DNA from: a plasmid
Direction: 5' to 3' (one strand)
DNA: 64,000 nt
NCBI RefSeq assembly: GCF_054482525.1
Contig: NZ_JBTHVG010000003.1
Numbering within the stretch: the stretch's first letter is position 1; each line of letters starts with the position of its first letter. The translations under genes were made by a program, and so were the position numbers. Below the pieces are notes generated by a model that was given only the letters and a program-made list of their open reading frames with translations, was not told the origin of the DNA and did no database searches. This document shows, piece after piece, positions 7,937 to 64,000 of this stretch.

Positions 7937-8330
7937 TTCGATATGGGCATTTACTTATGCTTAAAGCTATAGTATAAAAACAATGAGCTTAAATATCAGC
8001 TCCCAAATTTGAGTAACTTTGCTTAAAGTTACTTTCGCGTTAAGCGTTGATTTAGCCGTGAAAAGCGGCCAGCTTAAACAAGCTGTAAGACACCACCGGC
8101 AAAATGTCACCTTTGTCGCTGGTGCACTTCCCATGCCTGAAAAAGGCAATCTGAATTTACCAAACCGTAACTAATTTAGCTCCTCCTGGAGCTATTTTTG
8201 TTGCGTACTTCTAATGCCAGATAGTATAAATCAGGCGGTTCATAGCTTACGGGAGATGAATGACAGGCTTTGCCTTCGTGTTGAAACAAAAAATTGTTTC
8301 TTCCTTCTTACTATATATAGGTGACCCCAA

Positions 8331-9203: not shown

Positions 9204-9260
9204 TCCTGTTAAGGGGGAACCCTAACGGGGCTTCTCTTTGAACAAATCGAGGAGCGGAAA

Positions 9261-9638
9261 ATGTCATATCTTGAATATATCAATGAAGTAAAAGTGTCCG
9301 GGATAGTTATCAGTGCTGTGGAGAAAAAAATGACTGACCAGAGTATAGGTTTGTTAATAAAGCTCAAAAATAGGATGAAGACAGAAGTTGATGGTGAAAT
9401 CACTGAGAGAGAATTTTCAGTTCAAATCAAGGTGTCGCCTGAAATGTATTCAACCTGTTTCACTGGTATAAATCAGGGTGATGAGTTGATGGTCTCCGGT
9501 TATATTGTTGTCGATACTATTATGATTGAAGGGAGAGAACATCCTCTTGACTACATGAGAGTGGTAGCAACAAGTAAGTTGGCTCACATACCTAAACCTC
9601 TAAAAGGTTTTGGACAAAGTAGCTTTAATCAGATCTGA
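9261..9638 (+). CDS. Hypothetical protein, possible OB-fold ssDNA-binding-like
   Basis: 125 aa with GAGGAG RBS; beta-rich pattern loosely resembling SSB/PriB. Weak assignment. Confidence 0.4.
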   Translation: MSYLEYINEVKVSGIVISAVEKKMTDQSIGLLIKLKNRMKTEVDGEITEREFSVQIKVSPEMYSTCFTGINQGDELMVSGYIVVDTIMIEGREHPLDYMRVVATSKLAHIPKPLKGFGQSSFNQI

Positions 9639-9658
9639 CATTAAACCCACCCTAAAGG

Positions 9659-9689
9659 GGAGAAATCCCTTCATGGGATTTCTCCTTTT
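9659..9689 (+). terminator. Intrinsic terminator-like hairpin
   Basis: GGAGAAATCCC-TTCAT-GGGATTTCTCC perfect 11-bp stem followed by TTTT; lies between ORFs 9261..9638 and 9699..10676. Confidence 0.6.
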
Positions 9690-9698
9690 GGAGTCCCC

Positions 9699-10676
9699 AT
9701 GAAACAAAAATTTAGGGCTACTGCAATAAGTAGTAATCAACTTAGTTTTTTTTCTATACTCGATATAGATGAAGATGAAATAACGCAAATAGTTGATTCA
9801 CCCAAAGAGCATTTAAATGATGCTTACACGTCCGGATTAAACTTTAAATCAGAAGAAAGTAACATTTCTGAGATAAATTATGATTCTGAAAGGCGTGAAA
9901 ATCACCTTTATGAAAAATCCAAATTACTTAAAAATCAGATTTTGCATACAATTAATTTTGCAGCAGAAACAGATTATCTATATACGGTTGAAGAATATAA
10001 CCCAGATTTGGGTGGTCTGGTAATAGAATGGACCCCTGAGGATGTGTATGTTGTTTTTCTATCCGCTATGGAAGAGTCTTTGGAAATCATTAAAGAACTA
10101 GTGTTGAGGAGAAAGTTATTCTTCAAAGATGACAATGGTAATATCACAGTGAATCCACTTTTAGAAGCTGAAACACGGTGGTATATGTCAAAATCATTTG
10201 AATACACTTGTTTATGTCATGGACTTGATGCATGTGAATTTAGAGCGGAATTAAAATCATGGCTCTATTATCATTCGCATCGTTCGATTAGTGAAAACAC
10301 GAAATTAGCTGAATGCAGGAATGATGATGAAATCATTTTGCATGATTGCAATGACGATATGGGCTGGGACATCTTCTTTGATCAGGATTATTTAATGTCA
10401 GAAAAAAAACTGGCTGTTAAATGGACTGACAGGGAAATTATGGATGTTTACATAAAAGCTTTTAAATCCACATTAGAGTTGTTTGACGAGCTTGTTTCAT
10501 GTGATCTGTTAACTAAACGAAACGCTTTTGGCAAGTTAGAAATCAATCCAATATTCGAAAATCATTTTGAATGGATCATGTCTGAAGCTTTTGAAATAGT
10601 GGGAAATCATCTTGGTTATAATGTGCCTCAAATCAGGAAACTGATGGCAACTATTTGCCAAATGAATCTCAAATAA
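9699..10676 (+). CDS. Hypothetical protein
   Basis: 325-aa ORF, GGAG RBS, no recognised motif. Confidence 0.5.
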   Translation: MKQKFRATAISSNQLSFFSILDIDEDEITQIVDSPKEHLNDAYTSGLNFKSEESNISEINYDSERRENHLYEKSKLLKNQILHTINFAAETDYLYTVEEYNPDLGGLVIEWTPEDVYVVFLSAMEESLEIIKELVLRRKLFFKDDNGNITVNPLLEAETRWYMSKSFEYTCLCHGLDACEFRAELKSWLYYHSHRSISENTKLAECRNDDEIILHDCNDDMGWDIFFDQDYLMSEKKLAVKWTDREIMDVYIKAFKSTLELFDELVSCDLLTKRNAFGKLEINPIFENHFEWIMSEAFEIVGNHLGYNVPQIRKLMATICQMNLK

Positions 10677-10733
10677 AATGCCACTGGCAAACATCTGCCA
10701 GAGGGCGGTGTTTGCATTTTACCGGAGTTAAAA

Positions 10734-11792
10734 ATGTCTAATGCCGCTATGAAGTTAAATGAAACATCTTCTGATGCTTATGAAAAATTAGAAGCTCTTC
10801 TTTCCCCGGATGTTATAAAGTTAAAACATTATGTGGATAAAGGTGAGTATCTTTTAGTTCTAGCAAAGGACCTTTTTGGTATTCCAGAAATGGATCCAAA
10901 GATGGCTGTGCCTGTTTTCAAAACTAAAACCTCGTATCGAGCTCCGCTGAACAAAGACTACATACCAAATCCCCGAATACTTGAACAAGTGGTTAAACTG
11001 CTTATCAGTCCGGATATAGATTTAAGTGTGTGTCTTAAAGGTGAGTCCGGTTCTGGCAAGACTGAAATGGTAATGTACATTAGCCACATGATGAATTGGC
11101 CGCTGACAATTAAGCAGATCAACAGCAATATTCGAGTTGATGAGCTTGAAGGTGAGCGCAGTCTTAATGGTGGTAATACAGGTTTTGTACACAGCGATTT
11201 GGTAACGGGATTTCGTAATGGTCACCTCATTCTTCTGGATGAAGTGGACAAAATCGATCCTGATACGGCAGCAAAACTTCACATGCCCATTGAACGTAAG
11301 CCCTGGTCACTCAGTGCTAATGGTGGTGAGGTTATAACTGCTAATGGCTACACGCGATTTATTGGTACTGCAAACACAAACATGAGTGGAGGCGCTCGCC
11401 GGTTCGTTTCTTCTCAACGTCAAGATGCAGCTTTTATAAAGCGGTTCTTGATAGTTGAAATGGAGAAGCCCGACAAAGTTGCTTTAACCAATGTGCTTAC
11501 TAAACGATATAGCTCTTTGCCTTTTCAGGTCATTGAGAAGTTCGTAAGAGTAGCGATTGCAGTAAATGACTCTGGTACAGAAGACAGTGTGATGGATATT
11601 CGTCAATTAGTAGCTTGGGTTGGCACGTCGATGACGTTAAAAACCTTTAGTCTTCTTGACACTTTCAAAATAGCTTTTGCTTCTGCTTTACCTTTACATG
11701 TGGTCGATCTTGTTCTTCAAGCTATAGATCTTTCTCTTGGCGAAGACAAGGATAAATCGCTGGAGTATTTCACAGCAAAAAAGTCGAGTTAG
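10734..11792 (+). CDS. AAA+ ATPase, CobS-like/MoxR-like
   Basis: Walker A GESGSGKTEM, Walker B LILLDEVDK, about 350 aa as in the CobS-like ATPases of conjugative elements and phages. Confidence 0.8.
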   Translation: MSNAAMKLNETSSDAYEKLEALLSPDVIKLKHYVDKGEYLLVLAKDLFGIPEMDPKMAVPVFKTKTSYRAPLNKDYIPNPRILEQVVKLLISPDIDLSVCLKGESGSGKTEMVMYISHMMNWPLTIKQINSNIRVDELEGERSLNGGNTGFVHSDLVTGFRNGHLILLDEVDKIDPDTAAKLHMPIERKPWSLSANGGEVITANGYTRFIGTANTNMSGGARRFVSSQRQDAAFIKRFLIVEMEKPDKVALTNVLTKRYSSLPFQVIEKFVRVAIAVNDSGTEDSVMDIRQLVAWVGTSMTLKTFSLLDTFKIAFASALPLHVVDLVLQAIDLSLGEDKDKSLEYFTAKKSS

Positions 11793-12109
11793 ATGGGATT
11801 TGTTATGAAACCTCTGATATTTGTATCTCAGAGTTATCCCATCTTGAATTTAGTGCGTTTTTAAGTACGGATGGTGCTGCTACCATTGCTATAGCAAAAA
11901 ACGGAACTAATTTTACTGGACTTATGCAACTGAATAACGACTATTCTTTATTGTTTTATCATGATGGTAAAATAAATATGGAAGGTCTGATTAAACAAAT
12001 GGAATTAAAAGGTTATATGTATCAGGGAGCAATGGGCAATGATGATGTTGTTGCTGAGTTTCCCGGTATTCTTTTAATTTCACCAGAGAAGCTTTAATAT
12101 CAACCCTAT

Positions 12110-12150
12110 CGGGAAATCTTTCCCGTTGGGGAGGGTTTCCCCTTTTTTTT
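12110..12150 (+). terminator. Tandem hairpins with T8 tract
   Basis: CGGGA-AATCTT-TCCCG then GGGG-AGGGTTT-CCCC followed by TTTTTTTT, immediately before the GGAG RBS of the next gene. Confidence 0.6.
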
Positions 12151-12160
12151 GGAGAAACCC

Positions 12161-13288
12161 ATGACTTTAAATACTTCAATGCTTAACAAAGTATCTGCAA
12201 AACAAATCTCTGAGAATTTTGCAAAATCATATCCAGATTTACTGGAAGGTGCAGTTATAACAAAAATTGAAATAAGTGGCTGTCAAGGATCGCGTCGAAC
12301 CGATAAAATCGATTTGTCTTATGATGGAGATGATATTACGGATCAAAAAAGCGTATCTAAAAGCGAAGTACGCTGGATTGACATAAAAGCCCTTAGCTTC
12401 AAAAGTACGATTACCAGCAGAATATCAACTCTTTGCTCACGCTTGTGCATCCGCTATAGCAATATGTGGATTTTACCAGTATCCAGTATGGAAGAGTTTC
12501 TGGAAGGGGCCCAAGAGATTGAACGAGAGTTTCAGGCAGGTATTCAAAACGTTGTAGACAATTATGAGATGCATATTGAGGCTGAAAAAAATAGAAGCCC
12601 AAGAATGTCTTCTTTGATTGATCAGTTGAAATTAACTAAAGATGATTTCATAAAATCCTTTAGATTTAATATTGCTCACTTTATTCCTTTTACGCCTATT
12701 AGCGTTGAAGGTGATGAAACCCAGGACTACTATCAGGAACAATTGATAACAGATCTGGCAGAAGAAGCAATGAAGGTTTATGAAAAAATTAGCAAAAATA
12801 ACAATTTGCGCTCAAGTACTATTGACCGACTGAAGCAAATGCAAAATAAGATCATTAGCTTCATGTTTATACATAAAGAGGCGGCAGTACTTGCAGAAGC
12901 TATAAAACACATAATGAATAATTTACCTAAAGGTGCCATTTCTGAACCTCGCGACGTTGCGGTGTTACAGCAGTGGTTTTATTTCATGAGTGATGCTTCA
13001 ATGTTAAAGCGTATTATTTCAGGAGAGCAAAAGGTTACTGACTGGTTGGAATCTATTACCAGATCATTTAATCAAAGCTCACAAACAGAACCGAACGCGC
13101 TACAGAACACAGGTATTGAAGCTATTTTAGATTCAACAAATGTGTTCCAGGTTGAACCTGTCGTAGAGAACGATATAAATAACAGCACGTTTTCAAACAC
13201 TGATCCTGTAGCTGAACCTGAGAAATCAGTTTCGCAACAGGAAGACAATGTTGAAAATGGTTTTGATATCGAGCTCAAAGGCTGGTAA
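12161..13288 (+). CDS. Hypothetical protein (between the AAA+ and vWA genes)
   Basis: Start moved to the ATG at 12161 with a GGAG RBS (the ORF-track TTG start at 12149 lies inside the terminator T-tract); no recognised motif. Confidence 0.5.
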   Translation: MTLNTSMLNKVSAKQISENFAKSYPDLLEGAVITKIEISGCQGSRRTDKIDLSYDGDDITDQKSVSKSEVRWIDIKALSFKSTITSRISTLCSRLCIRYSNMWILPVSSMEEFLEGAQEIEREFQAGIQNVVDNYEMHIEAEKNRSPRMSSLIDQLKLTKDDFIKSFRFNIAHFIPFTPISVEGDETQDYYQEQLITDLAEEAMKVYEKISKNNNLRSSTIDRLKQMQNKIISFMFIHKEAAVLAEAIKHIMNNLPKGAISEPRDVAVLQQWFYFMSDASMLKRIISGEQKVTDWLESITRSFNQSSQTEPNALQNTGIEAILDSTNVFQVEPVVENDINNSTFSNTDPVAEPEKSVSQQEDNVENGFDIELKGW

Positions 13289-13308
13289 CTGTTTGCTTTA
13301 TTAAAAAC

Positions 13309-13350
13309 CCCAGATGGGTACTTCACCATCTGGGTGAGTACCCCTTTTTT
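13309..13350 (+). terminator. Terminator-like element with two mutually exclusive stems
   Basis: CCCAGATGG / CCATCTGGG stem overlaps an alternative GGGTAC / GTACCC stem, followed by T6. Confidence 0.55.
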
Positions 13351-13365
13351 ATAAAGAGGTATTCT

Positions 13366-15378
13366 ATGAAATTAGATCTTAAATCATCACCGCGCCATAT
13401 TAAGCGTTTACAGAATATAGCAAAAGTCATTAGCGGCTTAGGCGATGTAAGAGTTGTAATAGACGACAATACCAAAGGACCGTATTTTGATCCTGTAAAT
13501 AAAGTTTGTGTTTTACCAAACGGCGATTATAGCGATGATGACTTTGTCAGTCTGATTGAAGGTTTTACCTGTCATGAAGCTGGTCATGGTCGCTATACCG
13601 ACAGCGAGGTTTACAGTGACGCCTTTAATAGTGTTCTCAAGTCATCTGAAGGGTTTACACGCTTCGATGACGGAATGAATGCAGAGTTTGAGAGCCTCGC
13701 TGAGAAACGTAAAGCTTATAGCAGGGCAAAACGTCTTACCGGGCTTATAAATCTGTTCGATGATGTACAGATGGAAGAGAAGGTTGGTAACGATTATCCG
13801 GATGCAAAGCGGCGGCTTGCAGCCACTTACGCACTGATGGTTAAAGCCGGAAGGATGACTCCTGATATATCTTCTCGTCCGGAAAATCCTGTCCTATTTA
13901 TTGAGTGGTATCTGCTTAACTCATTGCGAGTAAAAGTCCTTCAGCAGGCAGGTCACAAAGAAACACTCGATCCGTTTTTTGACTATGCCCAAAAGATACT
14001 TTCTCCAGTAATTTCTGATGTTGAGGAAATTTTTCATGATGCTCTTGGTTGTGAAAATACTCAGGGCTGTGAATCCCTTGCTCGTAAGACCCTGGCTCTT
14101 TTAGAGAGACTGCGGGATGAGGCAAGGGAACAACAGCAGCAGACAGAGCAGGAGGAGCAGGAGGCATATGATGAATCCGAGACCGATACCGATACCGATA
14201 CCGAATCAGAAGATAAATCGCTTGAGTCGACTGATAGTCGTGAGGATGATTCTGAGGACGATAGTGAAGGTCAGGCAGATACTTCCGATAACTCTGATCT
14301 TGCTCAAGAGGGATGTTCTGAGCCTTCAGAACTTGCTGAAGATAACGAGGGAAATAATGAACCCACCGGTGGCAATCCCACAGGTGATAACATTATTGAA
14401 GACGATACTGATGCGATTAACCCTTCCGAGAGTGAATCAGATGAAGCCAGTTCGACTAACGTTGAAGATGAAAGTAACTTTTCATCGGCTCAATGGGAGA
14501 TACTGGCAGATTTGTTGGATGCCTTTCTTGGCAGTGATGAGGATAGCGAAGATTATCACGATGCTTTGGCTAAAGAGATTGAAGGTATTGCATCAAAAGT
14601 ATCCGATGACGTGAAAGCCGAATTCGGTGCTTCTGAATGGGATATCCCTGATCTCCTTATCGATTTGAATGTTTACAATGAGGCTTTGTCTCTGAGTCAT
14701 TCAATCGGTAGCGACTTGTCTGTTTTACAGCAGGTTAAAATGCGTGGCCGAAACAAAACTCATGAGCGTGGAATTACCTTCGATGGAAATCGATTAATTC
14801 TGTCACCAATGGGAGTTCGTGATGTCTTCAGAGCTCAAAGCGAATCTAAAAATAGAGGGCATGTTGGCCTCGTATTAGTTCGTGATATTTCAGCGTCAAT
14901 GGCTAATGATGAAAGATATATTCATGCCATTAAGTCAGATCTTGCTTTATCGATGGCCGCTGAAAGTTTGTCAAAAATGCATGTCTCCAATATAGTCTTT
15001 CCCTTCAAGGAAAGTGAATTTGAGATTATCAAAACGTTTGATCAAAGCGTTGAGGAATCTCTATCGAAATTCACTCTTGGATGTAAGGGTTATTATACCC
15101 CTACGGGATCGGCTTTAATGGCAGCTGTTGATCTGTTACTTGACAGCCAATTCGATAGGAAAATAATTTTTCTTATAACTGATGGTTATCCGAATAAATC
15201 GGAATTTACTATCGGCGAAGTTATGGAAAAGGCTAAGTGTAATGGAATAGAAATCGTTGGTGTTGGTATTAAGACTGATGAAATAATTGGTTTTGAAACG
15301 GACACTTTCGTAACAGTTGATGATACTTCTTTATTGTCTATTGAAGTCAGTAAGCTAGTTCATCAAATACTTTCTTAA
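13366..15378 (+). CDS. von Willebrand factor A protein with acidic linker, CobT-like
   Basis: C-terminal vWA with MIDAS motif (LVLVRDISASM, later ITDG); long D/E/S/T-rich low-complexity middle region; AAGAGG RBS; downstream of the CobS-like ATPase. Confidence 0.75.
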   Translation: MKLDLKSSPRHIKRLQNIAKVISGLGDVRVVIDDNTKGPYFDPVNKVCVLPNGDYSDDDFVSLIEGFTCHEAGHGRYTDSEVYSDAFNSVLKSSEGFTRFDDGMNAEFESLAEKRKAYSRAKRLTGLINLFDDVQMEEKVGNDYPDAKRRLAATYALMVKAGRMTPDISSRPENPVLFIEWYLLNSLRVKVLQQAGHKETLDPFFDYAQKILSPVISDVEEIFHDALGCENTQGCESLARKTLALLERLRDEAREQQQQTEQEEQEAYDESETDTDTDTESEDKSLESTDSREDDSEDDSEGQADTSDNSDLAQEGCSEPSELAEDNEGNNEPTGGNPTGDNIIEDDTDAINPSESESDEASSTNVEDESNFSSAQWEILADLLDAFLGSDEDSEDYHDALAKEIEGIASKVSDDVKAEFGASEWDIPDLLIDLNVYNEALSLSHSIGSDLSVLQQVKMRGRNKTHERGITFDGNRLILSPMGVRDVFRAQSESKNRGHVGLVLVRDISASMANDERYIHAIKSDLALSMAAESLSKMHVSNIVFPFKESEFEIIKTFDQSVEESLSKFTLGCKGYYTPTGSALMAAVDLLLDSQFDRKIIFLITDGYPNKSEFTIGEVMEKAKCNGIEIVGVGIKTDEIIGFETDTFVTVDDTSLLSIEVSKLVHQILS

Positions 15379-15393
15379 TAAACTCTACCCAAT

Positions 15394-15422
15394 CGGGGCA
15401 AAAGGCCCCGGTGGGTCTTTTT
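15394..15422 (+). terminator. Terminator-like hairpin
   Basis: CGGGGC-AAAAG-GCCCCG stem, T5 tract a few nt downstream. Confidence 0.5.
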
Positions 15423-15449
15423 GCTCCATGAAGGAATAAGGAGCAAAAT

Positions 15450-15671
15450 ATGACTCAGATAAAAACTTACCGTGTAGAACATGAAAAAGTCGGTGCGATG
15501 CATAAAGTCCGTATTTTCGGACGTGTTGGTGAAGTTATAAGCAATGATAGCCCTCAGGAAAGAATCTTCCGCGAAGTCACTATAGCGGAGGGTAATAGCC
15601 AGCAGGCTGCGTTACTTGTAGATAACTACATACAGTGTCTTGAGAATAATGGCTTCACGACTGAAGCATAA
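15450..15671 (+). CDS. Small hypothetical protein (73 aa)
   Basis: TAAGGAG RBS 6 nt upstream of the ATG; bracketed by terminator hairpins. Confidence 0.45.
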   Translation: MTQIKTYRVEHEKVGAMHKVRIFGRVGEVISNDSPQERIFREVTIAEGNSQQAALLVDNYIQCLENNGFTTEA

Positions 15672-15676
15672 ATGTT

Positions 15677-15700
15677 GAGGGCCCCCGGGCCCTCTTTCTT
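15677..15700 (+). terminator. Terminator-like hairpin
   Basis: GAGGGCCC-CCG-GGCCCTC followed by a T-rich run. Confidence 0.55.
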
Positions 15701-15784
15701 AAATTCTGCGTTGTGGGTTTCTCCCTGTCTTCTGCACCGCAGAAGGCATTGAGAAACTCACAATGCCAGATAAGAGAGATCATC

Positions 15785-17017
15785 ATGACTTATGCATCCC
15801 CGGCTCTTCGTCGTAATCCACAGGAAGTATCTGAACACTTTATTAAACTCGTTCATGCTCGAATTGCTGAAGTGTCTGGCTGGAAGTATATATTCGAAAG
15901 AATACCTGCTTTCAAAGACGCTTGTGCAAAAGCCCCGAGCCAGGTTCCTTGCCCGTTTACTGGCGCAGGGAAATCGAAGTTTCGTTTCCGACAAAAAGAC
16001 CTTTATACCGGATGTGCGATCCATAATGACTTTCCGGTAAATGAGTTTTGCGACGGAATTGATGTTCTGGCGAAATATTATGAATTAAGTAAAACGCAGA
16101 CTTGCAAAAAGATTCTCTCAGATTTTTTCGGGATGGATCTGCATGCTCCGTTAACTGACGCCGACATTGAAAATGAACGACGCTATAAATCAGCAGTTCG
16201 TGCCACAGAAACTCTTGACCGAGAGGAAGTGGCAAAGCGAATGCGAAAACTTGATGTGATGTATCACTATACCGGTGAAATCAAGCCTAATACTCCTGTT
16301 GCTTTGTACCTCCGTAATCGTGGGATCTCCCGCTTACTGAGTCACTTACCAAAGGATTTAGGCTTTAATAACCGGATCTACTATTGGGATAAAGATAAGC
16401 AGAAATCGATTATCTATCCGGGAATGATTGCGATCTATCGTGACACCCGAGGTCGGCCTCTGACTATTCATAGAACATACGTAGACAAAAATGGTGATAA
16501 GGCACCTGTAGAAAATCCAAAGCTGATGATGAAGCCTCCTGCCGATATGACAGGTGGCTCAATTCAGTTGTTTGACCCTCACTATGATTCAGGTAGTTCG
16601 ACCTGGACACTGGGAGTGGCTGAAGGGATCGAGAACGCGCTTTCTGTTGTAGAAGCGACTTCAACACCATGCTGGGCAGCCAGCTCCGCATGGTGCCTTG
16701 AAAACGTTACTGTTCCTGATTTTTTACTGCCTCCGCCGGATGTAAAATCTATAAACTTTTATATCTGGGCGGATAAGGATATTGCTAACTCACAAGGCAC
16801 TCGTGCCGGTATTGAAGCTGCTCAGCGACTTCAAAGCCGCATGGTTGAGTTTTTGGCTAAACGATATCCCGCATCAAAGCTGACAATTGAAGTCTTCGAA
16901 CCAGCACAAGATATTCCTGATGGGAAAAAGGGTATCGACTGGAACGATGTTCTCCAGTTAACAGGGCAGGATGGATTCCCGATTCACTGGGCTCCTGAAT
17001 GTCTTAATCAGCTGTAA
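15785..17017 (+). CDS. DNA primase, CHC2 zinc finger + TOPRIM
   Basis: Zinc-finger-like CPFTGAGKSKFRF...C..H; TOPRIM-like GVAEGIENALS and YIWADKD; start moved to the ATG at 15785 (the ORF-track GTG at 15713 overlaps the upstream terminator). Confidence 0.7.
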   Translation: MTYASPALRRNPQEVSEHFIKLVHARIAEVSGWKYIFERIPAFKDACAKAPSQVPCPFTGAGKSKFRFRQKDLYTGCAIHNDFPVNEFCDGIDVLAKYYELSKTQTCKKILSDFFGMDLHAPLTDADIENERRYKSAVRATETLDREEVAKRMRKLDVMYHYTGEIKPNTPVALYLRNRGISRLLSHLPKDLGFNNRIYYWDKDKQKSIIYPGMIAIYRDTRGRPLTIHRTYVDKNGDKAPVENPKLMMKPPADMTGGSIQLFDPHYDSGSSTWTLGVAEGIENALSVVEATSTPCWAASSAWCLENVTVPDFLLPPPDVKSINFYIWADKDIANSQGTRAGIEAAQRLQSRMVEFLAKRYPASKLTIEVFEPAQDIPDGKKGIDWNDVLQLTGQDGFPIHWAPECLNQL

Positions 17018-17028
17018 CAACGATAACT

Positions 17029-17060
17029 CCCCCGCTTTTTGCGGGGGGGGTTATCTTATC
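17029..17060 (+). terminator. Rho-independent terminator after primase
   Basis: CCCCCGC-TTTTT-GCGGGGG stem (G8 run) followed by a T-rich stretch. Confidence 0.6.
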
Positions 17061-17287
17061 AATATTATATTTTAAAATTGTATTGATAAGATAACCGCTT
17101 TCCTTCGTGATAATTACCTGCCTTTAAGGTCTTTTCACGGCTGAGATGCTTGCTCAGTTAAATAAATGTGCGGTACTACTGGCTATGGTCGGTTGTATGA
17201 CATGGTTATTCCATAAACTATTAAAACCCATAACGGGAGTATTACCGTTATGGTGATGCTCGTCGTTTTACATCGGAGAGCATTTTA

Positions 17288-17809
17288 ATGAATTTTCAAA
17301 TTAACGAAGTTTTTAATAAATTTGCTGCTGTTATAAAATCGCGCATCGTCAATGAACCATCGTCATGCTATTTGCTGCATGATAATGAGATAGATATAAC
17401 GATTTTGAAACATAGCATATTAGAAAATGACAGAAACCTGTTGTACGTAGTTCGTCCTTCAGGAACGTGTTTGTTGCGTTGTGACAAATATTTCTATCCG
17501 AAATATTATCTTCGTTGCCGTGGAGATTATAAGTCATTCATATATGTCCATCTTGATCTACATAGTGGTGAAGCTAAAGAAATCACATGGGAGCAAGCAG
17601 ACGATATGCTGTCTAGTCCAGGAAAACCCCCATTAAAAGGGAATCTTGGACGATTTGAGTATATAAAAGTTGTGGTTGAGGACCTTCGTATTCGAGGTTA
17701 CGCTGATTATCTTCCTGCGTATAATCTTGATGACCTTCGCCGTTTTGCCTTACAGGACGACCGCCCATCCCTTGTCAGATACATTGACAATGTCATGGCA
17801 ACGGTCTGA
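17288..17809 (+). CDS. Hypothetical protein
   Basis: 173-aa ORF, AT-rich, no recognised motif. Confidence 0.45.
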   Translation: MNFQINEVFNKFAAVIKSRIVNEPSSCYLLHDNEIDITILKHSILENDRNLLYVVRPSGTCLLRCDKYFYPKYYLRCRGDYKSFIYVHLDLHSGEAKEITWEQADDMLSSPGKPPLKGNLGRFEYIKVVVEDLRIRGYADYLPAYNLDDLRRFALQDDRPSLVRYIDNVMATV

Positions 17810-17887
17810 TTGATTGCTAATTGATTTACATATTTTCCCTGATGGCCAACCTGCATCAGGGAGGCCTCAATAACGAATGGAGGCTGT

Positions 17888-18766
17888 ATGAAGTTAGCTA
17901 CGGACCTGGTAAAAGCTATTTTGATTAGAAATGGCGTTGAACCAGTAAATATAAGCGAATCATCTAAGTTATCTTTGAAACAACCACTGACAGAACTTAA
18001 ATTCAGTTTATATTTGCGAACTGAGCATTTATCTCACTTCCTACCCGGTTATGTTTATTCTATAAAAGAATGTCCACTGTCATATGACATCGGGATCGAA
18101 ATTCAGAAAATCTTCGAAAGTTTACATTTGTTAAACGAAGAATTTGAATCCCTCGGTTTTGTTTCTGTATGGATAGAAATGCATCAAAGCATTTTTGAAC
18201 AAAGTCGGTTTAAGAAAAGTAACTTTACTTTTCGGGAGGAAGAGGTCGAGCTTGCTAAAGGGCTTGTTTGTTCTCACAATTCACAAATAAGTAATGCGGC
18301 TTATTTCTGGCTTCAGCACTTTGAGGAGTTTATGATTTATGTTCGTAATAAGCTTATCGACCTCTTTCGAGAGGCCTATGACCTGATCCTTGGAATGCAG
18401 CAAGTATTTTTCATTCGGGAAAAGGAAGAGCTGTTGAAAACTATAAGTTATGGCGATGAGCTGTATGAGGTGAAATTCATGGCGGCTGAGCTTTACTCTA
18501 TCGAACAGAACTTAAAGTGTTCTGAATCGATAAGTACAAAATCTCAAGCTTCGGCATATATTAACCGCATCCGTGAGTTTGTGCGTTCGGGGTGGAGGCA
18601 GGGCTATATAGTCTGCCATCATAAGCGAAGTAATCAAATTTCATCATTGTCATTACCGATGTACTTGAAAGATACGTCAGGCCGAAGTGCTCGAAAGCGA
18701 GTAAAACGTCTTATATCTTCTACAGTTTGTGGTAGAAATAAAGATTTAGGTCTTACAGATTTTTAA
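17888..18766 (+). CDS. Hypothetical protein, first of a run of about 300-aa ORFs
   Basis: 292 aa, GGAGG RBS, preceded by the hairpin CCCTGATG...CATCAGGG at 17837-17861. Confidence 0.5.
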   Translation: MKLATDLVKAILIRNGVEPVNISESSKLSLKQPLTELKFSLYLRTEHLSHFLPGYVYSIKECPLSYDIGIEIQKIFESLHLLNEEFESLGFVSVWIEMHQSIFEQSRFKKSNFTFREEEVELAKGLVCSHNSQISNAAYFWLQHFEEFMIYVRNKLIDLFREAYDLILGMQQVFFIREKEELLKTISYGDELYEVKFMAAELYSIEQNLKCSESISTKSQASAYINRIREFVRSGWRQGYIVCHHKRSNQISSLSLPMYLKDTSGRSARKRVKRLISSTVCGRNKDLGLTDF

Positions 18767-18784
18767 TTAAATTATACCCATGTG

Positions 18785-18820
18785 GGGATCACACCCCATA
18801 TGGGAGTGATCCCTTTTTTT
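18785..18820 (+). terminator. Terminator hairpin with T7
   Basis: GGGATCAC...GTGATCCC stem (loop ACCCCATATGGGA) followed by TTTTTTT. Confidence 0.6.
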
Positions 18821-18836
18821 ATTGAGAGAGGATCAC

Positions 18837-19772
18837 ATGAAAATTATCGAAAAAATCATTAATGCCTTTTTGGTTGTTCAACATAAAAAAATACAGGTTA
18901 AAAACATTACATTTTTAGACAATGGGCAGGGCATGTTCTCTGGTATGTCTTTTGATGCTGATGTTTCACTGGAGTTTATGTATGAATCAGCAAAAGCATA
19001 TAGTTCTTGTTTCTGTGATATTCCCTTTCCAGGTTTTGAAGATGCAAATCTGGAGGAAATTACGAAATTTCAATTAGATGCTTTGAAGCAAAGAAAGAAT
19101 CATTCTTTCTTTGTTAACCATTTGAGGTTTCCTATAGTTTTAAGGGAAGGGTGCAAAATCGAAAGAGGAGAAGTCTATTCAATTTCGAATTGCACTTATA
19201 ATAAAGAAAGATTGCAGTATCTTTTTTCTCAGGATATTTACGGTAAGTTGTATAATTCCTTAGAGAAAGAATTAAGCTCGTTTTTCTCATTTATCAATGT
19301 TGAGGTGCACGAGTTGTTAAAAGATGCTGTATGCTTTGCATTAAAAATCCTGAATAAGATATCTTTGGATACACCTGAAAGACTTATTAAAGCTTTTAAT
19401 TATCGTGACTGGTATTGTAGTTACGATGTTGAGCTTTTTAGGAAAGGCTTACCTGGTCATATTCTGGAAGAGCTCATTGCTCCAGATATCTTACTTTCAG
19501 ACCTTAACGGTTGTAGAAAAATACTTAGAAATGCAAAACGATTTCTAAATGGACATACACAAACCAATTGTGTTTATATTAAATATGAATGGTGGTTGGG
19601 GCCTGTTGATACCTCACACTCAGCTAAGTTGATGTCTGACAAAGAAATTAATAACCGAAGTGACTTGAAGAATTTTTCAAAGGTCTTTTTCAAAGAGTGT
19701 TTAAGTTCTGGTAAGTCGGAATATGAAAACCATCTTAGTGAAAAAGAACATGCGCTTCGCTATAATTATTAA
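18837..19772 (+). CDS. Hypothetical protein
   Basis: Start moved to the ATG at 18837 with an AGAGAGG RBS; about 311 aa. Confidence 0.5.
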   Translation: MKIIEKIINAFLVVQHKKIQVKNITFLDNGQGMFSGMSFDADVSLEFMYESAKAYSSCFCDIPFPGFEDANLEEITKFQLDALKQRKNHSFFVNHLRFPIVLREGCKIERGEVYSISNCTYNKERLQYLFSQDIYGKLYNSLEKELSSFFSFINVEVHELLKDAVCFALKILNKISLDTPERLIKAFNYRDWYCSYDVELFRKGLPGHILEELIAPDILLSDLNGCRKILRNAKRFLNGHTQTNCVYIKYEWWLGPVDTSHSAKLMSDKEINNRSDLKNFSKVFFKECLSSGKSEYENHLSEKEHALRYNY

Positions 19773-19840
19773 TTAAAATTATTTTCTCCCATAGGGATTT
19801 CTCCCTATGGGAGAAATCCCTCTATTAAGAGGGTATTGAA

Positions 19841-20761
19841 ATGAATGCTATACAAAAGTTAGTTGAATCTATTCTTGTTAAAATGGGTTTTGTTGGCGCT
19901 GTAGTGGAAAATATATATTTGGATTCAAAACCATTTCGGCATATTCGATTTGTGGCTGATATTCCAGTAATATCTTTTCTACCTCATTTGGTGAAATATC
20001 TTAAGGGTGCAGACCATCTTTACAGTGGTAACGATGATTTGCATCCTCTTTTCATTTATTTTTCCGAAGCGGCTACATTAAAAGCAGGTCCTGTAAATCT
20101 CGCGAACTTTCGTTTTGAAGTTTCTATAGCTTCAACTCATTTACGACTGGTCTCAGAGCAGCCTGATTTGCTTTTCAAAGGATTTAACCGGGATAATCTA
20201 GAATACGTTTATTACCGCTCAGATTTGGCCTCTAAGGATCTTATACTAGGCCTTGTTGAACACGGTTCTCCTTTCATAAAACATCTACATGGACTTATAC
20301 AAAAGCGAATTTTAAACGAGTTCTCTCTGATTTTTTCTGTTCTTGAAAAGATTTTAGAAAGCGCGAAGCCACAAATTCTTGCTTGCTTCCATAGTGTTGA
20401 TTATGAAATGAACGTAAAAATAATAGCCGAAGCTATACCTGAAACTGTATCTAATCAGATAGTCACATCTGATTATATAGTTAATTCTATATCAGATGCG
20501 GACAAGTTTATAAATCATGTTCGTCGCTATTTAGCAGGCAGGGTAATGAAGAGGCGGATATACGCTGAATTAGATGTTTGTGAAGAAACATCAAGTATTT
20601 CACTAGTGAACTTAGGATGCTTTACGTCTCCTCTGCTCGTTACGGAATATCAAATGTTTAAGCCACACTCTTCAGGGTTATATCGAAAAGCTATAAACAA
20701 CTCCTTAAAACAGTTCAAACCAGAAATGCATGTACCTTCTGAAGAACTCTTTTATAATTAA
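19841..20761 (+). CDS. Hypothetical protein
   Basis: 306 aa; preceded by the composite palindrome at 19783-19820. Confidence 0.5.
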   Translation: MNAIQKLVESILVKMGFVGAVVENIYLDSKPFRHIRFVADIPVISFLPHLVKYLKGADHLYSGNDDLHPLFIYFSEAATLKAGPVNLANFRFEVSIASTHLRLVSEQPDLLFKGFNRDNLEYVYYRSDLASKDLILGLVEHGSPFIKHLHGLIQKRILNEFSLIFSVLEKILESAKPQILACFHSVDYEMNVKIIAEAIPETVSNQIVTSDYIVNSISDADKFINHVRRYLAGRVMKRRIYAELDVCEETSSISLVNLGCFTSPLLVTEYQMFKPHSSGLYRKAINNSLKQFKPEMHVPSEELFYN

Positions 20762-20827
20762 TCTAACCCATCCGGGAACCTGCTTCCCGGTGGGAAGCAC
20801 TTCCTTTTTAGTCATGAGGTAGTGTAA

Positions 20828-21766
20828 ATGTTTAAAGAATCTGACCACGTGGAATTTGTTAGTGCCTTTCTTTATCAAAATTTAGGCCTTAATGTTTCCG
20901 CTGACGATATAACCGTTCAATTATCTGATACTTCGTTCGACAAAGTAACCTTTGATTACGATGTAGATATCGATAATTTAAATTGTATGTTGGATCTCTA
21001 CATATCTGAGCTAATAAAGCACAACGCATCTTACTCCGATTCTATTCTTTTGAAACAAAAAATAATTTATTTTCTTGGAGTATTTAAGAATTTCGGATTT
21101 TTTACGTTTGATATTCGCGGATATAGTAATACTTTAAGCCCAGTTAAAGTTATTGATATTGTTTCAATGATTATTAATGACTGTGAAGAGTTATCTAAAG
21201 CTAATTCTTCTACTGATGCTATAAGAAATCTTTATCTCGATAAAATGAAGGTGGATGGGAAAGTGTTAGTTGCGAAATTTGCACTTAAACAGTTTTTTCA
21301 TTCCGACTTTGGTGACTTTATCTCATTTGTCGAGAAAAGAATTACAGATTGTCTTAATGAAACTTTAAGGATTATCAAAGCTGTTGAACATGGCTTTGTA
21401 CGTGTAGGGCAGCATAAGATTAATCGCCGTATTAATGATGACTTAAAGTTATGCATTGATTTCAATACTGATGATTATCCGGCAAATATGCCAGATATAT
21501 ATATTAAGTTTAACGATACATTTGATGGGAACGGGGCGTTATATTGTGACAATGATGCCCTCATATCCCTCTATACCGATGTTGCTTCAATTATCAATGT
21601 GCCGGTGATGATGGAAGTAAGATTGATCAATAAAAGAGGGCGTGTTGTCTGTGATTCTTCGCATTCAACTTACGTATCTCTCGAAAGTAATGACCGATAC
21701 AGAGTAACTGATCGCACATTACTAATAACTGAAGCTTTTGACGATTTTCGTAACGCGTCTCAATGA
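20828..21766 (+). CDS. Hypothetical protein, tandem paralog A
   Basis: 312 aa; shares blocks with the next ORF (VDGKVLVAKFALKQF vs VDGQVMIARFALQQF; C-terminal ...VCDSSHSTYVSLESNDRYRVTDR vs ...VTDLCHTVYVSELTGGRIKIHDR); its upstream leader is also duplicated. Confidence 0.55.
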   Translation: MFKESDHVEFVSAFLYQNLGLNVSADDITVQLSDTSFDKVTFDYDVDIDNLNCMLDLYISELIKHNASYSDSILLKQKIIYFLGVFKNFGFFTFDIRGYSNTLSPVKVIDIVSMIINDCEELSKANSSTDAIRNLYLDKMKVDGKVLVAKFALKQFFHSDFGDFISFVEKRITDCLNETLRIIKAVEHGFVRVGQHKINRRINDDLKLCIDFNTDDYPANMPDIYIKFNDTFDGNGALYCDNDALISLYTDVASIINVPVMMEVRLINKRGRVVCDSSHSTYVSLESNDRYRVTDRTLLITEAFDDFRNASQ

Positions 21767-21937
21767 TCCTTTTGCTTCAGTCCAAAAAAGTAACTTTGGT
21801 TGGCTGAAGACACTTGTCTATGACAATGTAAAATCTGTCGCTGGCATCTTCTTTTAGCTTAACCAAATTTTTATCTAACCCAGTGGGGAAGTCGCTTCCC
21901 TTCTGGGGCACTTCCTCTCAAATTCGAGGTAGTGTAT

Positions 21938-22894
21938 ATGACACATTCATCTGATGATAAAAACTATGTCCGAGCAGTTCTGAGTTATCTTGGCATAGAT
22001 TTTGATGAGGCGGATATAGTATTAAGTGTTTGCCATTGTCAAAGTGACGAGCTTTCTTTTACCTGTAATATCAAAGCTATTGAACTCAAGAATGTTGTTG
22101 ATTTATATGTCGATAGTATCTCTGAGAATGAAATAGAAGCTTTAAACAGAGAATCTTTAAAATCGCGACTCTGTTACTTTCTTGAGGTGTTTGACGCAGT
22201 CTCTGGTCAGTACCTTGAAATTTCAGGAAAACACTTTGCAACTAGTCGTTTTGAATATGATGATGTTTGTAGTGAAGTTCTTAGCATGTCTAATGATGTT
22301 TCTCAGTCGAAAGGTTATGACCGGGATGAATATAACAGACTGATGCAGGTTGATGGTCAGGTTATGATTGCCCGTTTTGCTTTGCAACAGTTCTGGGATA
22401 CTCATTTTATTGGACTAATAACATTTGTATCTGAGTCTATAACATCGAGCCTCTATAAAGCTTATGAAACTTTTAGTGATATTAGTTTGGCTTGCTATAA
22501 ACTGAGTGAATATTCTTATTCACGCTCTATCAACAGTGAATTGACCCTTAATATTTCACTTAAAGAAAATGACTTCTGTGAGGACCTATCTGATTGCTAT
22601 ATGGAAGATGAGGCTTTACCTTCTGGTAGGGTAATTTCTCGACGCAACAATGACTCCATAATAAGTATTTATGAGAGCTATGCTGCGGCTTCTTATATTC
22701 CGATGATTGCATCTTTGGAAGTCGTTGATGAATACGGCGAAGTGGTTACTGACCTCTGCCATACCGTTTATGTTTCAGAGTTAACCGGTGGGCGGATTAA
22801 AATCCACGACCGTAATGACTTAGTATCTGAAGTTTTCGATAACCTAAGAAATTTAAATCTTGCAGTTGGAGATTCAGTTTCACAAGCTGCTTGA
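21938..22894 (+). CDS. Hypothetical protein, tandem paralog B
   Basis: Start moved to the ATG at 21938 so that the leader GAGGTAGTGTATATG matches paralog A's GAGGTAGTGTAAATG; about 318 aa. Confidence 0.55.
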   Translation: MTHSSDDKNYVRAVLSYLGIDFDEADIVLSVCHCQSDELSFTCNIKAIELKNVVDLYVDSISENEIEALNRESLKSRLCYFLEVFDAVSGQYLEISGKHFATSRFEYDDVCSEVLSMSNDVSQSKGYDRDEYNRLMQVDGQVMIARFALQQFWDTHFIGLITFVSESITSSLYKAYETFSDISLACYKLSEYSYSRSINSELTLNISLKENDFCEDLSDCYMEDEALPSGRVISRRNNDSIISIYESYAAASYIPMIASLEVVDEYGEVVTDLCHTVYVSELTGGRIKIHDRNDLVSEVFDNLRNLNLAVGDSVSQAA

Positions 22895-22933
22895 TTCTTT
22901 CCCTGATTTTGATTTTTTCTCACATACTCTTAT

Positions 22934-22958
22934 GGCACGGTTTCCGTGCCTTTTTTTT
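22934..22958 (+). terminator. Rho-independent terminator closing the paralog block
   Basis: GGCACGG-TTT-CCGTGCC followed by T8. Confidence 0.7.
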
Positions 22959-23157
22959 GCCTCGCTTACAAGCGTCTACTCCTCTTCTACCTATCCCACC
23001 TTACATCACCACTTAAAATCTATCTTTCTAATTCCATTATCCTTTTCGTAGCCTCTAATGCTCTGGTATGAACATACTCTTTAAACTCAAAAAAGTGCTA
23101 TTAACGAAAAAAAATCCCTAAAGAGATTTGTATACTGTTCTCAACCAAGGAGAGCTC

Positions 23158-23433
23158 ATGAATGAACTAAAATCCAAAAACGAGAACAGTACCAAAAGCA
23201 ACTTTCCCCCGGTTGATAATCAGTTTTGCTTTTACCATGTTGATTTCAGCATAGAACGACTACTTTCTACGGCCGAGGATCTCCAGCTTGAGTACATCTT
23301 CCAGAAACCTGGAAGTGAAGTAAGAAAGGATTTGGTTGAGCGATTCGAACGTGGAGAGCGCTTTGTTACAGCTTCACACTGTGACAATTTCTGTGAAATC
23401 CTTGGTTGTCAAGGCCATCAGGAAAATGCATAA
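23158..23433 (+). CDS. Small hypothetical protein
   Basis: AAGGAG RBS upstream of the ATG at 23158 (the ORF track starts at 23128). Confidence 0.4.
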   Translation: MNELKSKNENSTKSNFPPVDNQFCFYHVDFSIERLLSTAEDLQLEYIFQKPGSEVRKDLVERFERGERFVTASHCDNFCEILGCQGHQENA

Positions 23434-23477
23434 ACCCATAAACCTACATTTCCACTTTTAAGGATGTTCACTAAAGA

Positions 23478-24068
23478 ATGATTGGAGAAAGTATTTTTGA
23501 CTGGGTAATTTACGGAATATCCATTTTGATATTTGCCTCAGCACTAATTGAAGGAAAGACAACTCGCTACCCAGCACTTTTTTTCTATGGGAGTTTAATT
23601 TTAATGTTAATCCTGATAGTTGCTGGAGGCCTTAACTGGTGGTTCTACAGGTCAAAATATGGCGCAGTAATCGTTATCTTCACAGTGGTTTCTTTACTGA
23701 TGACTCGATTCCGCCTGGTCATATATAAATTAAGATTAAGAAAGTTAGTTTCAGAGATCAGATTTCGTATAAAAACGGGTTTTCGTATAATTCTTGTTTT
23801 GTCGGATAATGAGGATGAGCGTAATGTTCTGCTGTCTATGCTTAGCAACGTATTGCCAGAGCAAACGCTTATTCACACGCGTGATGCTCTCGGACCTCAT
23901 TCAGGGCCTATCCTAAAAGCTCTTGAGCTACATCATCAACAGGGAACAGGTTACATACTCGTCTGTGAACAACAAATCTCAGCGCGTACGTGGTTGAGTA
24001 TCGTAGAAAATGGGAAACCTGATACATCTATAGCTGTTAATTTTCATTCGATCCCAGAAATGGAGTGA
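23478..24068 (+). CDS. Membrane protein, unknown function
   Basis: Three predicted TM helices in the N-terminal half followed by a soluble domain. Confidence 0.5.
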   Translation: MIGESIFDWVIYGISILIFASALIEGKTTRYPALFFYGSLILMLILIVAGGLNWWFYRSKYGAVIVIFTVVSLLMTRFRLVIYKLRLRKLVSEIRFRIKTGFRIILVLSDNEDERNVLLSMLSNVLPEQTLIHTRDALGPHSGPILKALELHHQQGTGYILVCEQQISARTWLSIVENGKPDTSIAVNFHSIPEME

Positions 24069-24943: not shown

Positions 24944-24959
24944 AATTAGGCGGGGCAGA

Positions 24960-63000: not shown

Positions 63001-63204
63001 ATGCAAACCCAAAAAGAAATTACAGTTGGCCAGATCTGGGAAGAAGTGGATCCAAGACTGATCCGGAAAGTGCGGGTTGTTGAGGTGGCCTCGTTAGAAG
63101 GGCCCAAAGGCATCCTTATCGAAAACGTGGAGTCTGGTCGTAAGAACTGGGCGTCGTCATCCCGCTTTAATGGAAAGCGTGGAGGGTATCGTCTTATTTC
63201 CTGA
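63001..63204 (+). CDS. Small hypothetical protein
   Basis: 67-aa ORF. Confidence 0.3.
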   Translation: MQTQKEITVGQIWEEVDPRLIRKVRVVEVASLEGPKGILIENVESGRKNWASSSRFNGKRGGYRLIS

Positions 63205-63545
63205 CGGTTTTGCCAATATGGGAAACTGAAGAGGTTGAAACCATCCCGGTGAGGGAGCATATCTGGTAAAGAAGAGTCTTTAAAAAGGTTTTACGCGACC
63301 TGGGATAATAAACGGGAAAACGATACCCAAAAAAAGAATACAGCGATGATAACGATAAGGAATGGTAAGGGCTTCAATATTTTGAGAAATGCCCTGGCTT
63401 CCTTTGCATCTGCATTTCTAATCAAACTGTCCACATAGGGATCACAGCTCTTAGGTTCTGAATTTTTCATATGTTCTGTACCTGAAATTGATTCCGTATG
63501 AGAAAAGGCCACCGAAGTGGCCTCTATCAAAACTGGTGGCAAAAG

Positions 63546-63950
63546 TTAGATCAGGAAATCATCAAGACTTTTACCGGCTGCAATTTGTTCTGCCAGAGCT
63601 TTGGGGGTACGGCCCTGTCCAGTCCACGTTTTTGTTTCGCCATTTTCATCAGTAAATGAGTATTTGGCCGGGCGTGGTCCACGGCTTTTCTTGGTAGCCG
63701 TAGATTTGGCCTGGAATGAGCCAAGCAGCTCTTCCGGGTTGATACCATCTTCTTCCATTAACTTACGCAGGGCGTCAAGTTTCTCCTGACGAGCTTGCAG
63801 TTCGGCAGCTTTGGATGATTCTTCCTGACGACGCTCATCAACAATGACATTAAGCTTTTCGAGGATTTCCTCAAGTACTTCTAAAGGCAGCTCGCGGCCC
63901 TGGGCGCGAAGAGTACGAATATTGTTTAACGATTTGAGTGCTTCAGACAT
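63546..63950 (-). CDS. hns: H-NS family nucleoid-associated protein
   Basis: [20 protein letters not shown] at the N-terminus and the DNA-binding block [10 protein letters not shown] near the C-terminus; 134 aa. Confidence 0.9.
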
Positions 63951-64000
63951 ACGACCCCACTTTCTAATTCTTTGATAAGGATTTACTTAATCATAATACA

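Follow-up and report, generated by a model that had tools for sequence, protein, structure and literature searches.

Does the gene at the end of this 64-kb stretch of plasmid DNA (the window, analysed at its full length) encode an H-NS protein belonging to a mobile element and, if so, which H-NS is it, which element carries it and what might it do there? An earlier note on this DNA had proposed an element-encoded H-NS paralog of 134 residues, consistent with the stealth role of plasmid H-NS proteins and potentially able to silence an AT-rich block in the same window. Our analysis identifies the gene as the hns of the IncHI2 plasmid backbone, an HppH-type ortholog of Sfh of plasmid pSf-R27 and of the H-NS of plasmid R27 (together, Sfh/H-NS(R27)). 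Arguing by analogy, we consider it probable that it would share their silencing and stealth roles.

The list of open reading frames places on the minus strand a gene of 134 codons with an ATG start, its stop codon being included in the coordinates of Table 1. RefSeq annotates this coding sequence as WP_001287392.1, ‘H-NS family nucleoid-associated regulatory protein’. Two Pfam domains cover the product, namely Histone_HNS_N (PF22470) at residues 1-78 (E=2.5e-26; 91.8 bits against a cut-off of 24.5) and Histone_HNS (PF00816) at residues 95-134 (E=3.6e-16). Sequence matches to the PDB comprise 3NR7, a crystal construct of the H-NS 1-83 oligomerisation region, at residues 1-81 (E=5e-23), 2LRX, the C-terminal domain of StpA (E=2.5e-19), and 1HNR (E=9e-15). 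These domain matches lie far above chance and thus confirm that a 134-aa H-NS family protein is encoded at the locus, as had been proposed.

The layout of the protein is that of the family. A dimerisation/oligomerisation domain (residues 1-78) is followed by a basic linker (approximately residues 80-94), where alignment shows six basic residues to be kept across residues 82-96 (K82, K87, K88, R90, R93 and K96), and by a DNA-binding domain (residues 95-134) that carries the minor-groove motif T108-W-T-G-Q112-G-R114-T-P at residues 108-116. The role of the linker's positive charge is well established in the H-NS family. Across 31 family members the residues R12, R15, L26, L30, K57, R93-Y97, T108-W109-T110-G111 and G113-R114-T115-P116 are invariant and Q112 is nearly so; at all of these positions, Q112 included, the window protein matches the consensus. 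An AlphaFold2 model computed from an alignment of 31 sequences (mean pLDDT 78.4) contains helices at residues 3-20, 23-67 and 72-78 and a C-terminal domain of two strands and two helices, the linker being modelled with low confidence (block-mean pLDDT 52-67 across residues 71-90). A Foldseek search with the full-length model recovered the C-terminal domain alone, which matched 2LRX, 2L93 (TM 0.70) and 1HNR; the N-terminal domain is supported by its sequence matches to the PDB rather than by Foldseek. Judged from its sequence, the product is an intact two-domain protein with every structural element predicted to serve head-to-head and tail-to-tail oligomerisation as well as binding to the minor groove.

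The feature had been drawn from 63291 to 63950. Its upper end is correct; the lower end was placed 255 bp too low, the gene extending no lower than 63546. The extra 255 bp (63291-63545) lie outside hns and hold a hairpin together with an ORF of 83 aa that has a TTG start (59 aa from an internal ATG). This ORF has no Pfam or NCBIfam match, no RefSeq annotation and no counterpart beside hns in the one IncHI1 plasmid locus compared (L005). A single longer feature spanning 63291-63950 was ruled out, the additional sequence consisting of the hairpin and an unannotated, family-less ORF.

The hairpin, GGCCAC-UUCG-GUGGCC followed by UUUUCUC, folds at -18.3 kcal/mol (z = -3.05 against shuffled sequences), and the IncHI1 ortholog possesses at the same position a hairpin of different sequence, AGCCACT-TTTC-AGTGGCT with a T-run. 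A simple terminator scan of the surroundings of hns reported no terminators, this hairpin included. The terminator-like hairpin suggests that hns is the last gene of its transcript. Upstream, the IncHI2 and IncHI1 genes have in common only the Shine-Dalgarno region and the block AGAGTGTAWTAT. At the position of the GGGG, which is probably the Shine-Dalgarno element of hns, the IncHI1 ortholog reads AGTGAGGTCATATG. The block AGAGTGTAWTAT, the sole long conserved upstream block between the two genes, lies approximately 45 nt 5' of the ATG and holds a -10-like element, which reads TGTAATAT in IncHI1 so that the shared pattern is TGTAWTAT. We infer that this block supplies the putative -10 element of the hns promoter; placed as it is at 63993-64000, it implies that the window stops inside the promoter and that the remainder lies beyond. 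A consensus promoter scan of the surroundings of hns found three promoter-like sites against 3.0 expected, none of them placed to drive hns.

Table 1 Features of the window bearing on hns and its plasmid context, in order of position
Feature	Position	Strand	Basis
Tra2 transfer region, final part (trhF to trhN, followed by trhI)	trhN ends ~5071		annotation of NZ_LT795115.1
AT-rich block (38.6% GC vs 50.2% for 31-64 kb)	7001..24000	n/a	composition
Co-directional run of mostly hypothetical genes	same as AT-rich block		annotation of NZ_LT795115.1
Tus-like gene, tyrosine recombinase, hha paralog	past the AT-rich block		annotation of NZ_LT795115.1
hha paralog, 70 aa	29022..29234	plus	Pfam HHA 8.6e-19; RefSeq
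ter (tellurite) clusters and hipBA	past the hha paralog		annotation of NZ_LT795115.1
HNH endonuclease genes, UvrD-like helicase, then hns	past ter and hipBA		annotation of NZ_LT795115.1
Terminator-like hairpin, 20 nt 3' of the hns stop codon	63500..63526	minus	RNA fold
hns (HppH-type) CDS	63546..63950	minus	ORF list, Pfam, PDB sequence matches, RefSeq WP_001287392.1
Probable Shine-Dalgarno element, GGGG in AGTGGGGTCGTATG, 4 nt 5' of the ATG	63955..63958	minus	sequence and alignment
Conserved -10-like element, TGTATTAT	63993..64000	minus	upstream alignment, IncHI2 vs IncHI1

The window is 100% identical to, and collinear with, IncHI2A/MOBH/MPF_F conjugative plasmids of Salmonella, E. coli and Enterobacter, the whole 64 kb running along positions 107130-171129 of NZ_LT795115.1. 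The 2 kb around hns are 100% identical to many plasmids of 150-270 kb. In PLSDB this 2-kb segment matched 1,119 records from Escherichia, Salmonella, Enterobacter, Klebsiella and Citrobacter, 956 of which are predicted to be conjugative; among complete E. coli genomes it was found in 259 of 5,426, and 286 of the 293 places were plasmid-borne. The matching plasmid records are typed as replicon IncHI2A, relaxase MOBH and mating-pair formation class MPF_F. Thus, the mobile element that had been suspected is a conjugative multidrug-resistance plasmid of the IncHI2 group, with hns belonging to its backbone. The gene order Dcm-DUF1173-DUF4942-small genes-hns is shared between this plasmid and Buttiauxella contigs that encode a protein of 72% identity, a synteny that makes hns look like an old module of an IncH-like backbone.

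Comparison with known proteins establishes which H-NS this is. The window protein aligns without gaps over 134 residues to the H-NS of plasmid R27 (UniProt Q9L5H8, HNSP_SALTI; 81% identity), and it shares 80.6% identity with WP_001287388.1 of an IncHI1B plasmid, 72% with the proteins on the Buttiauxella contigs (220-240 kb), 63-64% with chromosomal H-NS and approximately 62% with StpA. In a neighbour-joining tree of the H-NS family (simple BLOSUM62, no bootstrap) it clusters with the IncHI1 proteins and is separated from H-NS, StpA and the remaining enterobacterial clades. The H-NS and StpA sequences used in this tree and in the identity comparison are what we take to be those of K-12, and comparison with the database-derived P0077 (64%), P0120 and P0085 leads to the same conclusion. 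The protein scores 170.8 bits against the NCBIfam equivalog for H-NS (NF008193; cut-off 211) and 182.6 bits against that for StpA (NF007656; cut-off 202), falling below both; the label ‘StpA’ that some sources apply is, by the latter score, a misnomer. Two other identities were considered and ruled out: chromosomal H-NS or StpA, by the plasmid context and the scores below the NCBIfam cut-offs, and a truncated antagonist of the H-NST or Ler type, by the presence of both domains.

Fitzgerald et al. 2020 (PMC7544231) defined six plasmid-only H-NS clades, of which HppH contains Sfh and takes its name from the IncH plasmids that encode its members; in their Table S2 the protein of the IncHI2 plasmid pEC-IMPQ (ACO54303.1) appears under HppH. 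The window hns has 99.8% DNA identity to that of pEC-IMPQ (NC_012556.1), and hence the gene had already been classified. By its IncH plasmid location and its grouping with Sfh and R27 H-NS in sequence comparisons, the window protein is a member of HppH, and the description of the gene as an element-encoded paralog, distinct from H-NS and StpA, is upheld. The pEC-IMPQ entry ACO54303.1 and RefSeq WP_001287392.1 represent the same gene, whose DNA is 99.8-100% identical across 848 plasmid records and of which the window carries the majority allele; the exact window protein occurs on at least 1000 contigs. The IncHI2 hns gene, its clade and the idea of stealth are all already known from the literature and from routine annotation. 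Hundreds of records already annotate the gene, it sits in a named clade, and the function proposed for it is the textbook one of plasmid H-NS proteins, so that its confirmation adds no new biology.

The closest characterised system is Sfh/H-NS(R27). Like the window protein, these proteins have 134 residues, and the plasmids that carry them are likewise conjugative IncH plasmids of the MOBH/MPF_F type with an hha gene; their own genes are also followed by a terminator-like hairpin after the stop, preceded by the conserved -10-like block and a Shine-Dalgarno sequence, and flanked by HNH-endonuclease genes. The differences are 26 substitutions concentrated in residues 47-94, which leave 69% identity in the central oligomerisation segment and 67% in the linker, and the plasmid subgroup, which is IncHI2A for the window and IncHI1 for Sfh/H-NS(R27). 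Chromosomal H-NS and StpA have the same two-domain architecture and DNA-binding motif, with R12, R15, L30, K57, R90, R93 and W109 conserved; unlike either of them the window protein is plasmid-borne, and it is without the two C-terminal residues (KQ) of H-NS. Relative to chromosomal H-NS, it is most diverged in the central oligomerisation segment (44% identity) and the linker (42%). IncX plasmids, too, encode full-length members of the family, the HppX proteins, examples being the IncX3 H-NS-like protein and HppX(CROD2) of IncX4 pCROD2. Over residues 6-134 they share only 41-48% identity with the window protein, in matches on IncX-size plasmids, and Fitzgerald et al. 2020 (PMC7544231) assign them to a clade of their own. 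Roles in repressing transfer and in the stability and fitness of the plasmid have been proposed for them (for HppX(CROD2), PMC13308145).

What such a protein may do is known chiefly from the IncHI1 side, the stealth, ChIP and complementation experiments having all been performed on Sfh/H-NS(R27) and none on the IncHI2 protein. Within the literature that was searchable, no study of the IncHI2/R478 H-NS by DNA binding, ChIP, knockout or fitness assay came to light; what it contained were annotation-level mentions and one RNA-seq study. Sfh has a stealth function: it binds a subset of H-NS targets, among them many on the chromosome, forms heterodimers with H-NS and StpA, and complements hns mutants (PMC7544231; PMC7074111). 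Deletion of sfh from pSf-R27 increases the fitness cost and the transcriptional disturbance that accompany plasmid entry, and extra H-NS relieves these effects (PMC7074111; PMC7544231). The stealth concept for plasmid nucleoid-associated proteins is credited to Doyle et al. 2007, and the experiments concern sfh of pSf-R27 only. The H-NS of R27 selectively silences horizontally acquired genes (PMC2686267), and conjugation of IncHI plasmids is thermoregulated by H-NS with Hha (PMC6764697). In its native plasmid context, Sfh did not restore repression of hilD (Fitzgerald et al. 2020, PMC7544231), which indicates that activity in context can differ from that of the isolated gene.

For the IncHI2 protein, a preference for AT-rich or curved DNA and transcriptional silencing are candidate functions, carried over from the IncHI1 ortholog. 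The source of this functional transfer is a protein with 19% of its residues different, and the divergence between the IncHI2 and IncHI1 proteins is concentrated in the central oligomerisation segment and in the linker. In R27 H-NS, target selectivity is governed by the linker. Expression of an IncHI2 hns is documented for pMDRHI2, where across five Salmonella hosts the gene ranks in the top 12 of the plasmid by expression, with transfer genes at a low level (PMC13183382). Those data concern the hns copy of pMDRHI2 itself, and nearly all IncHI2 copies are at least 99% identical.

A probable partner for this protein is encoded in the same window. RefSeq names the hha paralog ‘Hha/YmoA family nucleoid-associated regulatory protein’; against the NCBIfam Hha subfamily it scores 75.6 bits, below the cut-off of 90. 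Within its first 20 residues the window H-NS departs from chromosomal H-NS at just two positions, 7 and 18, while R12 is among the invariant residues. R12 is the residue through which the N-terminus of H-NS contacts Hha. On these sequence features, plasmid Hha is probably the co-repressor partner of plasmid H-NS. Structure 4ICG is among the PDB matches of the hns product.

The window also offers a plausible target. Its AT-rich block of 17 kb comprises the 3' end of trhI and co-directional backbone genes that include those for an AAA ATPase, DUF3150, VWA and toprim proteins. Windows of 100 bp with at least 70% AT make up 5.7% of this block against 0.9% elsewhere, and are thus about six times commoner. 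Sites resembling the H-NS nucleation motif tCGATAAATT (PMC2094087), matched within 2 mismatches, occur at 2.24 per kb in the block and at 0.98 per kb elsewhere, approximately 2.3-fold less. This motif enrichment is largely a consequence of base composition. Furthermore, the block would draw chromosomal H-NS equally, and it is thus as a plausible, candidate silencing target of the IncHI2 H-NS that we regard the 7-24 kb region, on the basis of orthology and composition. The hedged suggestions of the earlier note, that the gene fits a stealth role and might be able to silence the AT-rich block, agree with the conserved residues, the purifying selection described below, the presence of hha, the motif enrichment and the expression of hns on pMDRHI2; they draw on what is known of the IncHI1 ortholog.

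By analogy with Sfh and with H-NS biology in general, the most likely course of events is that the IncHI2 H-NS would coat the AT-rich DNA of its plasmid together with Hha and add to the cellular pool of H-NS. The protein would form homo-oligomers and, with host H-NS and StpA, hetero-oligomers; these would nucleate on and spread along AT-rich DNA such as the block of 38.6% GC and the transfer regions, where transcription would be repressed, probably with Hha and more strongly at 37 °C. The additional H-NS-like protein would also prevent an incoming AT-rich plasmid of 200-250 kb from titrating chromosomal H-NS, and this ‘stealth’ effect would lower the fitness cost of plasmid carriage.

A narrower role can be envisaged, in which recognition of plasmid-specific context or topology confines the protein almost entirely to its own plasmid. 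Its main task would then be the temperature-dependent repression, together with Hha, of transfer and accessory genes, host stealth being at most a by-product. A 2026 preprint describes just such a ‘cognate plasmid specificity’ for the IncX4 protein HppX(CROD2) (PMC13308145), although at 41-48% identity HppX is only a distant relative of the window protein. The thermoregulation of IncHI conjugation by H-NS and Hha (PMC6764697), the plasmid's own hha, and the high hns and poor transfer gene expression on pMDRHI2 (PMC13183382) all fit this role, and the low identity to chromosomal H-NS in the central segment and linker could limit mixing with the host protein. It is at odds, however, with the many chromosomal targets of Sfh, with the heterodimers that Sfh forms and with its complementation of hns mutants, and R27 H-NS restores silencing of horizontally acquired chromosomal genes in an hns mutant (PMC2686267). 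We regard so restricted a role as unlikely, and continue to favor combined silencing and stealth.

Selection on the gene speaks to whether it has any present-day role at all. Between the window hns and its IncHI1 ortholog, DNA identity is 76%, dS is 1.39 and dN is 0.124, giving a dN/dS of 0.089, which indicates strong purifying selection. Copies with DNA at least 99% identical to that of the window are found in 848 of the 859 hns-containing PLSDB records, from at least 10 genera. It could be argued that hns is a relic inherited with the backbone, its function covered by host H-NS and StpA and its contribution now slight. In 122 of the 859 hns-containing plasmid records (approximately 14%) the gene is indeed cut to less than 80% of its length, usually abutting IS26, and this indicates that, in some lineages at least, the plasmid can persist without an intact hns. 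Similarly, the Tra2-side backbone occurs at 95% identity or more in approximately 1,135 records and any hns DNA in only 859, a difference from which the hns-less fraction can be roughly estimated, since the backbone count may include partial or chimeric plasmids. Against such redundancy stand the low dN/dS over a synonymous divergence of 1.39, the near-identity of the gene across genera, the position kept in the 72%-identical Buttiauxella contigs and the high expression of hns on pMDRHI2. An idle relic consequently appears improbable to us beside a silencing and stealth protein under selection.

Plasmids of the IncHI2 group rank among the main carriers of mcr-1, mcr-9, blaCTX-M, blaNDM and resistance to heavy metals. 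The H-NS/Hha pair is a plausible reason why these AT-rich plasmids of 200-300 kb enter many Enterobacterales at modest cost, and plausibly also why IncHI2 transfer takes place mainly at low temperature. Functional work has been devoted to the IncHI1 ortholog, while the IncHI2 protein is epidemiologically the more important.

The truncated alleles merit consideration in their own right. Most of the cut copies derive from a single IS26 junction at codon 41, which leaves an annotated fusion ORF of 118 aa and recurs in plasmids of E. coli, Salmonella and Leclercia. In this widespread allele, carried by roughly 13-14% of the records with hns, residues 41/42-134 are fused to an IS26-derived leader; residues 1-40 are gone, and the second oligomerisation site and the DNA-binding domain are kept. 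If expressed, such a product could in principle cap filaments, which raises the question of whether the plasmid H-NS might act in the opposite sense, as an anti-silencer comparable to H-NST or Ler that poisons H-NS filaments or displaces H-NS and so switches plasmid genes on. Entry of pSf-R27 modestly raised expression of hilD, hns, stpA and hfp in Salmonella (PMC7544231), as an anti-silencer might. Yet Sfh expressed alone complements the loss of H-NS (PMC7544231), and the gene in the window encodes the entire protein, in which neither of the two oligomerisation sites nor the DNA-binding domain is damaged. The known H-NS antagonists are single-domain proteins. We consider it scarcely credible that the intact gene serves as an anti-silencer, and a silencing function remains our reading of it.

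It is tempting to speculate, although we hold it to be quite doubtful, that the diverged central segment and linker may insulate the IncHI2 HppH protein into plasmid-specific filaments and, separately, that the IS26-truncated allele could be an expressed, filament-capping variant. Were the latter true, such a variant might lift repression from the transfer or resistance genes of a plasmid sub-lineage that has proved successful. The natural IS26-disrupted hns alleles in any case constitute a ready-made comparison with the intact gene.

Natural disruption of hns is recurrent. Among the 859 PLSDB records that contain hns DNA, 122 possess less than 80% of the gene, and most of the cut copies have a single breakpoint in common, at which an IS26 terminal repeat lies directly against codon 41. 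This breakpoint was found in plasmids of E. coli, Salmonella and Leclercia. An annotated fusion ORF of 118 aa remains at the cut gene, comprising a 24-aa IS26-derived leader followed by H-NS residues 41/42-134, and therefore lacking dimerisation site 1. In other plasmids, IS1 or IS3 insertions were seen inside the matched 2-kb region around hns.

Features at hns, in its surroundings and elsewhere on the plasmid
Feature	Location	Strand	Remarks
IS26-cut hns allele	compared locus L006:2929-3285		database matches H126-H129; window hns at 63546-63950
AT-rich block gene run	window ~8300-25400	single strand	~17 backbone genes
Unannotated putative ORF	window 63291-63542	-	just downstream of hns terminator
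Unannotated 94-aa ORF	compared locus L002:22129-22413, ~window 64128-64412	-	just past window end
Two-gene helicase module	window 58948-61988	-	neighbouring HNH endonuclease gene
HNH endonuclease gene	window 62601-62939		beside the two-gene module
hha paralog	window 29022-29234	+	70 aa; Pfam HHA 8.6e-19

The hns gene adjoins a module of two genes whose stop and start codons overlap. One encodes a UvrD/GajB-like helicase of 679 aa (PADLOC GajB 1.4e-51; Pfam UvrD-helicase 2.5e-44) and the product of the other, 334 aa long, matches CoiA_N weakly and falls short of the cut-off (Pfam 2.4e-5, 24.2 bits against 26.3). The module is missing from the one IncHI2 plasmid with which we compared it, pR19.0144_302k, and the adjacent HNH endonuclease is shortened from 285 to 112 aa where the module is present; it looks like a variable insertion. 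Only 584 of 1,119 records cover at least 80% of window 62000-64000, consistent with a variable junction near hns. Searches of Pfam and PADLOC matched the module to no complete known system; it is possibly a defence-type module of the nuclease-helicase kind.

Two small ORFs flank hns. The downstream putative ORF would encode 83 aa with a TTG as its start codon, or 59 aa if translation began at an ATG further in. Its C-terminal stretch is hydrophobic (PLPFLIVIIAVFFFWVSF), and it found no match in Pfam or NCBIfam. It is kept in all four of the IncHI2 loci examined and is missing from the one IncHI1 locus compared. The 94-aa ORF has many hydrophobic residues; it shares the strand of hns and immediately precedes it, at a position where the RefSeq locus-tag numbering skips one tag (RS26665 in pSA186_MCR1). 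Transcription of hns might start further upstream and include the genes there.

The plasmid also carries its own hha, lying some 34 kb from hns beside a tyrosine recombinase gene and a Tus-like gene. Its score against the NCBIfam Hha subfamily (75.6 bits) does not reach the cut-off of 90, which marks it as a diverged plasmid-type Hha. Most genes of the AT-rich block are of unknown function; AAA ATPase, DUF3150, VWA-domain and toprim-domain proteins are encoded among them. Across window 1-25000, 284 plasmid records match at 60-80% identity only.

Relatives of the HppH protein occur beyond IncHI2. Buttiauxella proteins encoded on contigs of 220-240 kb (L007-L009) are 72% identical, and their genes lie in the same Dcm-DUF1173-DUF4942-hns order as on IncHI2, which suggests that IncH-like plasmids possessing this module form a broader family. 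In Enterobacter ludwigii (L010-L011), a 90%-identical copy resides on a 1.09-Mb contig and adjoins TniB/TniQ and group II intron genes, a context that may be chromosomally integrated or mosaic.
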